Assembly (NCBI GenBank): GCA_027002265.1 | Contig: JAMOTM010000043.1 | Location: forward strand, 14,458-78,457 | Direction: 5' to 3' | Length of the DNA stretch: 64,000 bases | From: Aquificota bacterium | GTDB lineage: Bacteria; Aquificota; Aquificia; Desulfurobacteriales; DQVG01 | In this document: piece after piece, positions 768 through 28,371 of the stretch | How positions within the stretch are numbered: position 1 is the stretch's first letter | How the letters are laid out: the number at the start of each line of letters is the position of its first letter | Made by a program: the position numbers and the translations under genes | The notes under the pieces: model-generated | Database searches by the model: none | Seen by the model: the letters and a program-made list of their open reading frames with translations, nothing else | Told to the model about the DNA's origin: nothing

Positions 768-797
768 AAATTAGAAAAGGGGGGATAAAATCCCCCC
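768..797 (-). terminator. intrinsic terminator after the 644-aa gene (GGGGGGA-TAAAA-TCCCCCC hairpin at 779-797)
   Basis: 7-bp G/C-rich stem read directly. On the minus strand it is followed by TTTTCTAATTT and lies 5 nt past the stop at 803. Confidence 0.6.
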
Positions 798-802
798 ATC
801 AA

Positions 803-2737
803 TTAAACATCTATTTCTTCCCAAGCTCTTTCTTCAGCTTTCATTAAGTCCGCAGCTTGTAAAAGTAAAAGACCAGATTCAAATAAAGAGTTTTGTCCTA
901 AGAATTTTGCTTGTTTCATAATAGTGAGTTCTTTTTCAAATTCTTCATCTGTAAGTCCAGCCTTCTTCTTAATTTCTTTCCAGTTTTCCGGCTCAATTCT
1001 TACTCTTTGCTCTTTTACATATAAAGAACCAACTTCTTTAATTGCGCGGATTATTCTAATAACGAATGGATTTACTGGGTTTGCAATTCCTTCTGGCGTA
1101 CCTGCGGTAGCTCTTTTGATAAGTTTTCCGGGTTCAGTTAAAGTTACTACTCCACAGGTTTCTAAGTTTACAATACCTTTTGCATCTAATTTTTCCAAAG
1201 CAAGGTAAACATCTTCTCTTTCTTTGTCACTAAAGTATGGTTTAATAATATCTTCCTCGATAAATGCTCCTCTTAAATAAGGAATACATTTTAAAACTCT
1301 AAGTTCAAAAGCGGTTAAGTGAGGAACTCTATTGATATGAGTTGCCATTCTTGCATAAAATCTTCCGGATGCAGTTGGAGCTCCTTGTCCGGTGGTAATA
1401 GCTTCTTCTCCTCTCATAAACCAAGAGTAATCTGGCGCTCTAAATTCAAGACGAGTTACTGTAACAGATTTTACAGCTGGGGCAGGAATCGGTCTTTCTT
1501 TAACTTGTTTTTGATCTTGAAGAACTTTTTTACCCCAGTCTGTGAAGTCATAATAAAGTTTTCCTTTTTCGTTTATATCTGTTTTAATAGCTTCTTGTGC
1601 TTCTAAAGAGTAAAGAGCAGTAGAAATATCATAATGCTTATTAAACCACTCCTCTACTTTCTTTGCTTCTTGCAATTCTTTTAAAATCTGTTGCTTTTTC
1701 TCTGGAAGCTCTTTTAATCTTCTTCCATATTTTTCTAAAAGCTTTTGAGCTTCTCTTAATTTTCTTTCAAATACAGTTTTCCAAATTTCTTCTTTAGTAG
1801 GATAAATTTCTGGATTTTCTTTATGAGTTTCCCAAATTTTTTCAATAGCTTTTAAAATTTCAATTTCAACTTCATCAAAATCTACCGTCCAAGGATCGGT
1901 TTTAACTTGTTTTGTATAAATTTTCCAAGCAAGATATAGATGTTTTCCTCCGGGTAGAAGATTTCCTTCTTCATCAATATAAGCCTGAGCTACAAGTTTT
2001 TCAAACATTTTGCTATCTATAGCATCTTTCCCTTCTTCAACTACTTTAGCTAAGTTTTCTAATATTTCTGCAGATACATTTATAGGTAAAGCTGGAGCGG
2101 ATTTTAATAAGCCTGCTCTCACTTGTTGTCCAAGTCCTGTTAAAGCATAAACATCAGATTTTGGAGCGGAGAAAGCTATAAGTCTTTGAGCTTCAAGTTC
2201 ATAAAGTTCATGTTTTCCAACATCTGCGGTTAATTTTAAAATAGATTTAAGACCTGGTCCTGGAGGCATTTCTTTAATATAATCTGTAAGTCTTTTATCT
2301 ACAGTAATATGAGGTTTTGCTTCTTGATAAGCTTGCCAAATGGTATCTGCAAGCGGAGTAAGTTGTCCGTTTTTAGCAAATCCTCTTTCTTCTAAAGCTT
2401 CAGCTACATCTTGAGGACATCTACCTTGACATTTTCTTGCAACTTCAATCATTGCAATTACTTCGGTTCCCACCCAGCGATATCCTTCTTCCCAATCTTC
2501 TATATTGATAACACCTTGTTTTTCTGCTGCCTCAATTGTTTCTGCTACAAGCATTCCACTATAAGTAAGATGATATTTGTCGTTATCTTCCAGTCTTAAA
2601 AGACCTATTAGATTAAGTTGATTTAAATACTCTAAAATTTCAGGTTCTTTTTCAGCTGCAGAAAAAAATTCATCTCCTCTTAATTTACCTTCATATATTT
2701 CCTTTAAAAGTTTTACATGCTCTTTTGTTAGTATCAT
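803..2737 (-). CDS. conserved hypothetical soluble protein, 644 aa, with repeated winged-helix-like 'LTxxG' modules
   Basis: Long uninterrupted ORF with a GGAGG RBS 5 nt upstream of the ATG. No TM segments. Recurrent motifs HLTYSGMLV, QLTPLADTI, YALTGLGQQV, DFTDWGKKV, VTLTEPGKLI. No family recognised. Confidence 0.8.
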   Translation of the reverse strand: MILTKEHVKLLKEIYEGKLRGDEFFSAAEKEPEILEYLNQLNLIGLLRLEDNDKYHLTYSGMLVAETIEAAEKQGVINIEDWEEGYRWVGTEVIAMIEVARKCQGRCPQDVAEALEERGFAKNGQLTPLADTIWQAYQEAKPHITVDKRLTDYIKEMPPGPGLKSILKLTADVGKHELYELEAQRLIAFSAPKSDVYALTGLGQQVRAGLLKSAPALPINVSAEILENLAKVVEEGKDAIDSKMFEKLVAQAYIDEEGNLLPGGKHLYLAWKIYTKQVKTDPWTVDFDEVEIEILKAIEKIWETHKENPEIYPTKEEIWKTVFERKLREAQKLLEKYGRRLKELPEKKQQILKELQEAKKVEEWFNKHYDISTALYSLEAQEAIKTDINEKGKLYYDFTDWGKKVLQDQKQVKERPIPAPAVKSVTVTRLEFRAPDYSWFMRGEEAITTGQGAPTASGRFYARMATHINRVPHLTAFELRVLKCIPYLRGAFIEEDIIKPYFSDKEREDVYLALEKLDAKGIVNLETCGVVTLTEPGKLIKRATAGTPEGIANPVNPFVIRIIRAIKEVGSLYVKEQRVRIEPENWKEIKKKAGLTDEEFEKELTIMKQAKFLGQNSLFESGLLLLQAADLMKAEERAWEEIDV

Positions 2738-2772
2738 TCATTATCCTCCTAAAAATTATTAATTGATGGGAA

Positions 2773-2781
2773 ATTATAGCA
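2773..2781 (-). promoter_or_regulatory. candidate extended -10 element (TGCTATAAT) for the 644-aa gene
   Basis: The reverse complement of 2773-2781 reads TGCTATAAT, about 35 nt upstream of the ATG at 2737. Confidence 0.3.
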
Positions 2782-2801
2782 AAGAAGGGAAAAATATATA
2801 G

Positions 2802-3047
2802 TTAGGAGGAAAGTTCTTTGATTTTTTCTTCAAGATATTCAAGAGCTTCTTTGCAGCTGATTGGAAGATATACATTAGAGGATCGAATATATACAGTTTT
2901 TTCGTTTTCTTTGCAAAGTTCCTTTAAAAGTTTTATTTCTTCTTCGTATAAACGTTTTAAAAGCTCTTTATTGATTTCTCTTTTTTTCTCATCTTTTAAA
3001 CGAAACATTTCTTTTATCTCATTTATCCACTTTTCAACTATACTCAT
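2802..3047 (-). CDS. small coiled-coil protein, prefoldin beta-like hairpin region, C-terminally short (81 aa)
   Basis: AGGGGG RBS 6 nt upstream of the ATG. 'VYIRSSNVYLPISCKEALEYLEEKIKEL' resembles the beta-hairpin and start of helix 2 of archaeal prefoldin beta as I recall it. The protein ends about 17 residues into helix 2. Confidence 0.45.
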   Translation of the reverse strand: MSIVEKWINEIKEMFRLKDEKKREINKELLKRLYEEEIKLLKELCKENEKTVYIRSSNVYLPISCKEALEYLEEKIKELSS

Positions 3048-3057
3048 TTTCTGCCCC

Positions 3058-3094
3058 CTAAAATAATAATAGGGGGCACCTTTAAAGGTGCCCC
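3058..3094. terminator. palindromic hairpin GGGGCACC-TTTAAA-GGTGCCCC between the prefoldin alpha-like and 81-aa genes
   Basis: Perfect 8-bp stem at 3073-3094. T-rich on both sides. About 25 nt from the RBS of the 81-aa gene, so probably a partial terminator or stabiliser. Confidence 0.5.
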
Positions 3095-3101
3095 TTTTGT
3101 T

Positions 3102-3566
3102 TTATTTATTTTCTTCCTTTTTTTCTTCTTTTTCTAAAGTTTGAGCTTTTTCTAGTAAAGCTTCAAGAGCCATATATGTTTCTGCAATGCTTCTTTCAAT
3201 TAAAAGAGCAGCTGCTTCTAATGCAGAAATTCTTTTGTCAATGTGTTTTAAAGCTTCTTCGTAAGAAAGCTCAACAGAAAGATTTGGTCCAATAGTCATA
3301 ATAATTGTATTTGGATCTTCAATTTTAGCTTTAATAGCAGCATCTATTCCAACAGGTACCAAAATTGTTTTTCCTTCTCCAAGTTCTTTTAATTTAGCTA
3401 AAGTTACTTTGAGAAGTTTTAAATTAGAAATTTGTTGGCGAATAAGCTCAAGTTCTGCTCTTGCAGCTTCAATGCTTGCAACAAGAGCTCTCAATTGAGC
3501 TTGTAACTGAGCTAAAGTAACTACCTCTTCTTTAACTTCTTGGTTTTGTACTTTATTTTCAGCCAT
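3102..3566 (-). CDS. prefoldin alpha-class-like protein (coil / double beta-hairpin / coil), 154 aa
   Basis: GGAGG RBS 8 nt upstream. The central block 'TILVPVGIDAAIKAKIEDPNTIIMTIGPNLSVELSYEEALKHIDKRISALE' aligns closely with the archaeal PfdA hairpin region as recalled. It is flanked by heptad-like helices. Confidence 0.7.
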   Translation of the reverse strand: MAENKVQNQEVKEEVVTLAQLQAQLRALVASIEAARAELELIRQQISNLKLLKVTLAKLKELGEGKTILVPVGIDAAIKAKIEDPNTIIMTIGPNLSVELSYEEALKHIDKRISALEAAALLIERSIAETYMALEALLEKAQTLEKEEKKEENK

Positions 3567-3769
3567 TTTTATAACCTCCTTTTAGTTCTTATTTATCATT
3601 TTCTTTATCTATTAATAAATATAGGCTTTTTTAAATAATTTTCAAGATATTATTAAAAAATATAAAATAAATTTTTAAATTTCTAAAAGATCAGGATAGT
3701 CAGTAAATAAAATAATTTAAATTAGAAAAAAGGGAAAAAGGTAATTAAAAGAAATATAAAAATACCTCA

Positions 3770-27066: not shown

Positions 27067-28371
27067 ATTTCTATACCGTAACGGTTTAAAGTAGAAGAAA
27101 AACAAGATATAGCAAGAAGATTGAAAGATTAGTTTCCATACCGTAACGGTCTTATTTAAAGGAGAAATATATCACAGATTACGAAATTATTAGTAGAGAG
27201 TTTCCATACCGTAACGGTCTTATTTAAAGAGGATTTTCGTTAATCCTGAATTCAACTGTCTTTACAGTTTCCATACCGTAACGGTCTTATTTAAAGGAAT
27301 AATATGCTTTATTATCATTTGTAATAAAAATACGAGTTTCCATACCGTAACGGTCTTATTTAAAGAACATTAGAAAAAAATAAAAGTAAGGGGGTAAGAA
27401 AGTTTCCATACCGTAACGGTCTTATTTAAAGATATAGGAATAGTTGTTTTGGTTGTAGGATTGATTTAGTTTCCATACCGTAACGGTCTTATTTAAAGGA
27501 CAGCAATGCTTATTTGTTCTTCCCTAAAAGAATTTGTTTCCATACCGTAACGGTCTTATTTAAAGGAGAAATATATCACAGATTACGAAATTATTAGTAG
27601 AGAGTTTCCATACCGTAACGGTCTTATTTAAAGCTTGCATATTTCCTTACCAAAGCATCAATTCCCAATTCGTTTCCATACCGTAACGGTCTTATTTAAA
27701 GGAGAAATATATCACAGATTACGAAATTATTAGTAGAGAGTTTCCATACCGTAACGGTCTTATTTAAAGTTATGAAGTTGTTGTTGTGATACAGAAGAGA
27801 TTGTTGTTTCCATACCGTAACGGTCTTATTTAAAGGGAAATCAATTATTTTATAAATAATTCTCCAGATAGAGTTTCCATACCGTAACGGTCTTATTTAA
27901 AGAAGTAATAAAAACTGAAAAGGGGGTGTGAAATGTTTGTTTCCATACCGTAACGGTCTTATTTAAAGGTTGGGGGGCTATGAGGAACTCAGATTACACT
28001 TTTAAAGTTTCCATACCGTAACGGTCTTATTTAAAGTTTGAAAATGAACGAATAAAATTGAAGTGGTTGTTGAAGGTTTCCATACCGTAACGGTCTTATT
28101 TAAAGTTTATTAAATTTCCATTTATACTTATTGCTAAAGTTAAGTTTCCATACCGTAACGGTCTTATTTAAAGAACTTTAATATACGCTTGTGCAAGAAA
28201 ATCATTATTGTTTCCATACCGTAACGGTCTTATTTAAAGAATGAGATAAATTTGCAATAAAATGAGTTTATCAACGTTTCCATACCGTAACGGTCTTATT
28301 TAAAGTGAAGAGAATATTTTAGAAATTGAAATGAAATAAAAGTTTCCATACCGTAACGGTCTTATTTAAAG
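27067..28371 (-). CRISPR. CRISPR array: 19 identical 30-nt repeats, one degenerate terminal repeat (27067-27091) and 19 spacers of 36-40 nt
   Basis: Plus-strand repeat GTTTCCATACCGTAACGGTCTTATTTAAAG was read at 19 positions. On the minus strand it ends ...TATGGAAAC. The degenerate repeat is at the left end and the promoter-bearing AT-rich leader at the right, so minus-strand transcription is inferred. Confidence 0.95.

Follow-up and report, generated by a model that had tools for sequence, protein, structure and literature searches.

The stretch of Aquificota DNA analysed here (GCA_027002265.1, contig JAMOTM010000043.1, positions 14,458 to 78,457; hereafter the window, meaning the whole 64,000 nucleotides (nt)) encodes a bona fide alpha-class prefoldin subunit of 154 amino acids (aa) and, directly downstream of it, an 81-aa protein that we accept, on sequence comparison and modelling, as a divergent and truncated relative of the beta-class subunits. 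Among solved structures, the nearest relative of the larger protein in sequence is not a canonical alpha subunit but gamma-prefoldin (PfdA2), the filament-forming protein of Methanocaldococcus jannaschii. The gene pair is not a bacterial invention, as the same arrangement is present in Methanocaldococcus, where the small open reading frame (ORF) appears to be an unrecognised mini-prefoldin beside a much-studied protein. On balance we favour the interpretation that a gamma-type prefoldin and a mini-beta subunit constitute a module common to both domains, in which the two proteins would also be physical partners.

The 154-aa protein was assigned to its class by both profile and structure. It scored 73.1 bits against PF02996 (cut-off 23.2; profile positions 4-118 of 120) and 76.6 bits against TIGR00293 (cut-off 53.9; positions 1-128 of 129), and the AlphaFold model displays the long helix, two beta-hairpins and long helix of the alpha class (helix 18-62, strands 80-84, 87-92 and 96-101, helix 102-153), with low confidence in the first strand region of the monomer. 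The top Foldseek matches of this model in the PDB were 1FXK_C, 6VY1_A and 2ZDI_C (E 1e-5 to 6e-5). An earlier annotation made from the letters of this DNA without database searches, the sequence-only reading, had already called the protein an alpha-class prefoldin, and the profiles and the structural matches corroborate this. The alpha sequence of M. thermautotrophicus which it gave agrees with the alignment to 1FXK_C, and the ORFs, the intergenic hairpin at 3073-3094, the gap of about 25 nt behind this hairpin and both quoted peptide strings were all found where it had placed them.

The expectation of a canonical type of alpha subunit did not hold equally well. The best PDB sequence match of the 154-aa protein is the gamma-prefoldin structure 6VY1 with 94.9 bits (E 5e-26, 43% identity over 133 residues), against 51.9 bits for 1FXK_C of M. 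thermautotrophicus and 44.6 bits for 2ZDI_C of P. horikoshii, these two being the canonical alphas compared and the canonical alpha of Methanocaldococcus itself standing outside the comparison. Two motifs, LGEGKT[IV]LVPVG and YEEALK[HY]I, are common to the 154-aa protein and gamma-prefoldin and are absent from both 1FXK_C and 2ZDI_C. Since the closest relative is gamma-prefoldin, the alpha2-beta4 jellyfish assembly cannot be assumed for the protein described here. Five bacterial lineages were compared, namely the window, L005 (metagenome-assembled genome (MAG) SZUA-1507), L017, L019 and L020, and the alpha/gamma proteins of the other lineages are 76-84% identical to the window copy, the gene having a ratio of nonsynonymous to synonymous substitution rates (dN/dS) of 0.09-0.17. 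Databases already label the large gene in these MAGs as 'prefoldin subunit alpha', and its bare presence is therefore not new.

The 81-aa protein is conserved in the same five lineages as a product of 81-82 aa with a dN/dS of 0.07-0.09 and saturated synonymous sites. Because the length is kept in all five under this level of selection, it is not an artefact of frameshift or assembly, and purifying selection together with constant length indicates that the truncation is a selected state. AlphaFold predicts a helix (3-46), strands 51-56 and 59-64 and a second helix (65-80) with a predicted local distance difference test (pLDDT) score of 86.9 from an alignment of three sequences. This is the helix, single beta-hairpin and helix topology of the beta class, and the second helix ends about 17 residues in, as had been anticipated from the ORF translation. 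With a C-helix of 16 residues and an N-helix of 44 the paired tentacle of the beta class is lacking, and since most of the C-terminal helix is missing the protein cannot form a two-helix tentacle. The ten best PDB matches of the model in Foldseek are all prefoldin chains, led by 1FXK_B.

The assignment of the 81-aa protein to the beta class is based on this predicted fold and on transitive homology through an archaeal ORF. A metagenome scan with the gamma-type alignment led to Methanocaldococcus-like contigs with at least four loci, and the archaeal loci compared were those on three such contigs (L013-L015) and that of the complete genome of Methanocaldococcus sp. FS406-22 (L023, CP001901.1). 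On every archaeal contig that extends past the gamma-prefoldin gene, the start of an ORF of 54-58 aa lies 20 nt ahead of the stop codon of that gene, and in FS406-22 it is annotated merely as 'hypothetical protein' (WP_012980648.1). The archaeal 58-aa ORF scored 32.7 bits against PF01920 (cut-off 27.6, E 7.7e-8), the match covering profile positions 26-79 of 106 and both helices being cut to about 17-20 residues, and the archaeal small ORF matched TIGR02338 (gimC_beta) with an E of 8e-5.

The bacterial and archaeal small proteins were in turn related to each other by BLASTP (E 3e-5 in a single comparison) and by alignment of the two families in hhalign (E 1e-7, probability 94%, score 39.8). 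This score was reached by 0 of 300 column-shuffled controls (null 11.0 +/- 2.7, maximum 29.1). The alignment runs from the last part of the N-helix through the hairpin into the first part of the C-helix (VYIRSSNVYLPISCKEALEYLEEKI in the one family and IYIEMSGIWVEVNKEEAINYLKKKI in the other), and conservation between the two is strongest in the hairpin and the start of the C-helix. A profile of the two families combined was headed in the PDB by the prefoldin beta chains 3AEI_A, 1FXK_A/B and 2ZDI_A with borderline E values of 0.02-0.17, those of the leading hits being 0.02-0.04. Derivation of the small protein from gamma-prefoldin by loss of the two central strands was also considered, but the hhalign matches of the small families to the gamma family are weak (E 2e-4 to 2e-3, probability 15-47%) and were not used as proof.

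The mini beta-like ORF lies directly downstream of the gamma-type gene in L013-L015, L023 and the five bacterial lineages. The conserved linkage of the 154-aa and 81-aa genes on which the sequence-only reading depended is thereby established in the five bacterial lineages and extended to Methanocaldococcus. The downstream mini-ORF as a feature of gamma-prefoldin is newly noted here and is part of no published definition of this protein, which has so far been presented as a lone chaperone that polymerises by itself and is called unique to M. jannaschii (PMC11117396).

In all five bacterial lineages the prefoldin gene, the small gene and a DUF505 gene occupy the same chromosomal setting, with dapB on one side and tmk, rpmA and rplU on the other, which looks like one acquisition in a genus-level clade. 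The window itself is bacterial, as had been claimed from its letters, and encodes L21p/L27, Hsp33, thymidylate kinase, DapB, F1-ATPase alpha and beta, MnmG and PNPase as well as a penicillin-binding protein (PBP) transpeptidase with LysM domains. The nearest named relative is a Desulfurobacteriaceae MAG. The most likely origin of the module is horizontal transfer from archaea of the Methanococcales type into a narrow clade of the Desulfurobacteriaceae (Aquificota), the direction being inferred from the rarity of prefoldin in bacteria and its near-universality in archaea (PMC12874294) and not from a tree. The three-gene block (801-3600) has a G+C content of 0.30-0.36 vs 0.21-0.29 in the flanking genes and spacers, a mild shift that could reflect foreign origin or plain coding constraints. 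No copy of the prefoldin gene was recovered from plasmids or phages by tblastn, and hence no transfer vector was identified. Among the environmental records, a bacterial contig with exactly this locus and Methanocaldococcus-like gamma-prefoldin contigs carry consecutive JGI record numbers (L003, L014, L015 and L016; Ga0256836, Ga0256837, Ga0256838 and Ga0256840). Going by the record names only, these apparently belong to one sampling series, and the lineages presumed to have given and received the module may live in the same habitat.

The gamma-prefoldin of M. jannaschii is an ATP-independent chaperone. It polymerises through two beta-sheet interfaces, X1 and X2, and TERM, a gamma-prefoldin in which one of them is disabled, caps the filaments and sets their length in a ratio-dependent manner (PMC4895442). 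The gamma-prefoldin transcript is up 26-fold on lethal heat shock (PMC11117396). By analogy, the alpha/gamma subunit of the module may self-assemble through its two hairpins into an oligomer or filament that would serve as an ATP-independent holdase, and the one-hairpin mini-subunit may dock on the free hairpin interface of such an assembly. Lacking a second interface, the mini-subunit could not be extended upon, and it would thus act as a natural end cap, or as a closer of the beta-barrel, that stops or limits assembly. The mini-subunit would be produced at a lower level than the main subunit, in bacteria by way of read-through of a terminator-like hairpin and in archaea by way of a start codon lying 20 nt inside the upstream gene. 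The specific role in capping falls somewhat short of an even chance in our judgement and is put forward tentatively. The widest form of the proposal, in which gamma-prefoldin is one half of a conserved two-component system, the mini-beta subunit is its natural end cap or length regulator and the whole module has crossed from archaea to bacteria, combines several such steps and is regarded as possible rather than probable.

A number of observations weigh against this interpretation. The 81-aa protein did not match PF01920 down to E = 10, or TIGR02338 at E <= 1, and the suggestion of the sequence-only reading that it is a truncated beta-like partner is therefore upheld by the topology and the archaeal link but not by a direct search with the beta-subunit model. 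It matched PF02996 only below significance (E 0.064, residues 57-80), and the other bacterial members of the family likewise fail the prefoldin hidden Markov model (HMM) thresholds. The profile of the 81-aa family gave matches at chance level only against the PDB sequences, and an exhaustive HMMER profile search of 1.84 billion representative proteins recovered its own cluster alone. The fold model was built on just three aligned sequences, and the best Foldseek E value for it is 0.044 with none below 0.04. An identity of 43% to gamma-prefoldin does not guarantee that the bacterial 154-aa protein forms filaments. In the bacterial mini-subunit the N-helix is of full length and the N-terminus is hydrophobic and highly conserved (VEKWIxEIKEIF), and as a pure cap would not need this, a further partner or a role in substrate binding is possible. 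This motif is nearly invariant in the bacterial family and lies beyond the reach of the short C-helix. One of the five bacterial lineages, L020, has a spacer of 38 nt without a terminator hairpin. Finally, the narrowness of the clade and the direction of transfer are provisional because sampling was by word-index and pattern searches only; the word-index searches returned close relatives only (seven hits with the alpha/gamma protein, three with the small one) and a scan of genome contigs with overly narrow patterns returned one locus.

The genes might alternatively encode a canonical jellyfish, an alpha2-beta4-like hexamer with shortened or single-helix tentacles at its four beta positions, which would act as a holdase handing substrates to the bacterial chaperonin. 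The alpha-class and beta-class topologies are those of the two subunit types of archaeal prefoldin, the beta subunits flank the alpha dimer in the solved 1FXK hexamer, and a one-hairpin protein could fill the beta positions. The closest characterised relative, however, forms homo-filaments and is reported to bind neither canonical alpha nor canonical beta subunits (PMC11117396). With helices of about 17-20 residues the archaeal mini-subunit has no tentacles to offer, and its role is therefore more likely to be structural than to lie in substrate binding. A terminator between the genes is also hard to reconcile with a 2:4 ratio, which calls for more of the downstream product than of the upstream one, and we consider the hexamer unlikely, although it is the main alternative.

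A partnership of the kind favoured here would likewise be mistaken if the small protein were a prefoldin-derived coiled-coil adaptor or regulator that does not bind the alpha/gamma subunit, possibly acting with DUF505, and stood next to the prefoldin gene only as the result of a partial duplication. The conserved hydrophobic N-terminal segment (residues 3-17) and two conserved cysteines, C45 and C65, occur in the bacterial family only and are missing from the archaeal ORF, and a DUF505 gene follows the pair in five bacterial lineages, all of which would suit an independent role. Against this, the pair is adjacent in two domains, DUF505 has no link to prefoldin at the other loci examined, and conservation between the bacterial and archaeal small proteins peaks in the hairpin and the first part of the C-helix, the element through which prefoldins oligomerise; an independent role is thus still less probable than the hexamer. 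With C45 at the end of helix 1 and C65 opening helix 2, the two cysteines flank the hairpin. Both are invariant in the bacterial family, where they may act as a disulfide staple or serve in redox chemistry or metal binding. A last alternative takes the 81-aa ORF as a relic without function, or as the product of chance, with a likeness to prefoldin that is compositional (a Glu/Lys-rich coiled coil). This would account for the want of a significant direct family match and for the solitary cluster in the exhaustive search, but it is highly improbable in view of the low dN/dS, the length and frame kept in five lineages, the confident AlphaFold model and the shuffling control, in which the absence of any score as high as that observed rules out a compositional cause of the match to the archaeal family.

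Several candidate expression signals lie around the two genes. The hairpin at 3073-3094 reads GGGGCACC-TTTAAA-GGTGCCCC and is terminator-like on both strands; six terminator-like sites were observed between 600 and 4000, where 1.7 +/- 1.6 were expected. Four of the five bacterial lineages (the window, L005, L017 and L019) have a G/C-rich hairpin behind the stop codon of the prefoldin gene, with a different sequence in each. Of the T-tracts after it, those of L005 and L017 are strong, that of L019 is moderate and that of the window is weak (CUAUUAUUAUUUUA). The spacer between the 154-aa and 81-aa genes is 54 nt in the window, where the hairpin is separated from the ATG at 3047 by 25 nt that include a GGGGG Shine-Dalgarno sequence (3054-3058), and the distance from hairpin to start is about 25 nt in L005 and L017 as well. 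This leaves no room for a promoter, as had been argued in the sequence-only reading, and the small gene would consequently have to be transcribed by read-through from upstream in these lineages. The recurrence of the hairpin is compatible with the attenuated read-through proposed in the same reading. In archaea, the 20-nt overlap of the small ORF with the upstream gene implies translational coupling, and the bacterial and the archaeal layout would both fit a partner that is less abundant than the main subunit.

In the window, the hairpin's 3' arm (UGCCCCCUA) could also form 9 bp without a mismatch with the Shine-Dalgarno region of the small gene (UAGGGGGCA). The terminator and the alternative helix are close in folding energy, with -17.5 vs -17.2 kcal/mol at 37 C and -8.2 vs -8.8 kcal/mol at 70 C, and energy evaluation finds them isoenergetic across 37-80 C. 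The alternative helix could be a switch, an RNA-thermometer-like element or a mere by-product of G/C runs. Upstream of the prefoldin gene, the TTGAAA...TATATT candidate is the best-scoring promoter-like site of the region, and the block from TTGAAA over the 16-nt spacer to TATATT is the only strongly conserved stretch in the alignment of the five bacterial upstream regions. No CIRCE-like heat-shock operator was found in these aligned regions.

The locations of the genes and signals discussed are collected in the following table.

Coordinates of the prefoldin module, its expression signals and its archaeal counterpart (window positions unless a locus is named)
Feature	Position	Strand	Basis or remark
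154-aa prefoldin gene	3102-3566	minus	ORF listing
81-aa mini prefoldin-like gene	2802-3047	minus	ORF listing
644-aa DUF505 gene	803-2737	minus	ORF listing; PF04458 661 bits
Terminator-like G/C hairpin, 8-bp stem, 6-nt loop, weak U-rich tail	3073-3094	minus	directly 3' of prefoldin stop codon
Alternative helix, hairpin 3' arm (3070-3078) with Shine-Dalgarno region (3052-3060)	3052-3078	minus	RNAfold and energy evaluation
Sigma-70-like promoter candidate, TTGAAA-16 nt-TATATT	3618..3645	minus	upstream of prefoldin gene; 10/12 matches
Intrinsic-terminator-like hairpin, GGGGGGATTTTATCCCCCC then TTTT, closing the gene string	779..797	minus	terminator-like site scan
Archaeal small ORF	L023 4001-4165 (FS406-22); L013 from 487; L014, L015 5389-5565		overlaps gamma-prefoldin 3' end by 20 nt

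The gene downstream of the pair encodes a DUF505 protein, and the sequence-only reading had raised the co-occurrence of all three genes at 803-3566 as a question. A DUF505 gene is indeed located 3' of the prefoldin pair in every one of the five bacterial lineages, but a three-gene unit is not supported. None of four DUF505 homologues examined, with 73%, 44%, 40% and 37% identity and including that of Desulfurobacterium atlanticum, lies beside a prefoldin gene, and DUF505 is missing from the archaeal gamma-prefoldin loci examined; a functional partnership of DUF505 with the pair was rejected on these grounds, and its membership in the module is unsupported. The 64-nt spacer upstream of the DUF505 gene holds an extended -10-like sequence, TGCTATAAT, which is possibly a promoter of its own. 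Weak PadR or winged-helix-like signals were observed at about residues 350-410 of the DUF505 protein. Its closest homologue outside the clade is 73% identical vs 37% for the D. atlanticum copy, a pattern that hints at paralogy or at transfer within the family.

A CRISPR (clustered regularly interspaced short palindromic repeats)-like array is present elsewhere in the window at 27124-28371, with a 30-nt repeat (GTTTCCATACCGTAACGGTCTTATTTAAAG) and a period of 66-68 nt. It is arranged in two blocks (27124-27902 and 28141-28371) inside a 2.3-kb stretch without an ORF of at least 120 aa and lies just downstream of two tRNA-Ser genes.

Prefoldin is described as absent from bacteria in a review (PMC8801880), and homologues among prokaryotes are otherwise given as archaeal only (PMC3907059). 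A literature search, whose coverage did not extend to the original gamma-prefoldin paper of 2007, returned nothing relevant on a bacterial prefoldin, on MJ0648 or on a partner of gamma-prefoldin. The mini-beta partner in either domain, its conservation beside gamma-prefoldin and the sharing of the pair across domains thus appear to be unreported. A prefoldin module that is under selection and has a candidate promoter in a hot-vent lineage of the Aquificota is a clean exception to the absence of prefoldin from bacteria. Prefoldin normally serves the group II chaperonin, which bacteria are expected to lack, and the question is raised what its role may be in a cell which, judging from bacteria generally, is expected to use GroEL and not a thermosome. 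Gamma-prefoldin is also a widely used scaffold for nanomaterials in which filament length is set with engineered caps. If the capping role is true, a natural one-hairpin partner would explain why gamma-prefoldin filaments exceed 2 um in vitro vs about 500 nm in cells (PMC11117396). The small proteins would furthermore be a case of a beta-class subunit whittled down to little beyond its oligomerisation hairpin.

Among the known systems, gamma-prefoldin (PfdA2, MJ0648, 6VY1) is the one to which the bacterial locus bears the greatest likeness, being the best sequence match, sharing the two motifs and the alpha-class topology and having a homologous mini-subunit gene immediately downstream. The differences are that the host here is a bacterium, that identity is 43% and that filament formation, heat-shock induction and chaperone activity are properties of the archaeal protein which the bacterial one may or may not share. 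The loci differ in that the archaeal genes overlap by 20 nt whereas a 54-nt spacer with a hairpin separates the genes in the window, and the partners differ in that the archaeal one, of 54-58 aa, has two short helices whereas the bacterial one, of 81 aa, has a full-length N-helix. The canonical alpha2-beta4 prefoldin, or GimC (1FXK, 2ZDI), is similar in that its two Pfam families recur, PF02996 in the large protein and PF01920 in the archaeal counterpart of the small protein, in the architecture of helix, hairpin or hairpins and helix, and in that its beta chains top the PDB list of the combined small profile. It is dissimilar in that the canonical alphas score far below gamma-prefoldin against the large subunit described here, and in that the small subunit is without most of the C-helix, the 81-aa protein falling below every prefoldin HMM threshold. 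TERM, the engineered capping variant reported by Whitehead et al. in 2008 and Glover et al. in 2016 (PMC4895442), offers a functional analogy, since the mini-subunit would likewise be left with a single working beta-sheet interface, and could thus join an assembly but not extend it. TERM is however a man-made, full-length gamma-prefoldin with a mutated X2 sheet, whereas the mini-subunit is a natural, separately encoded and truncated beta-class paralogue for which capping is proposed by this likeness.

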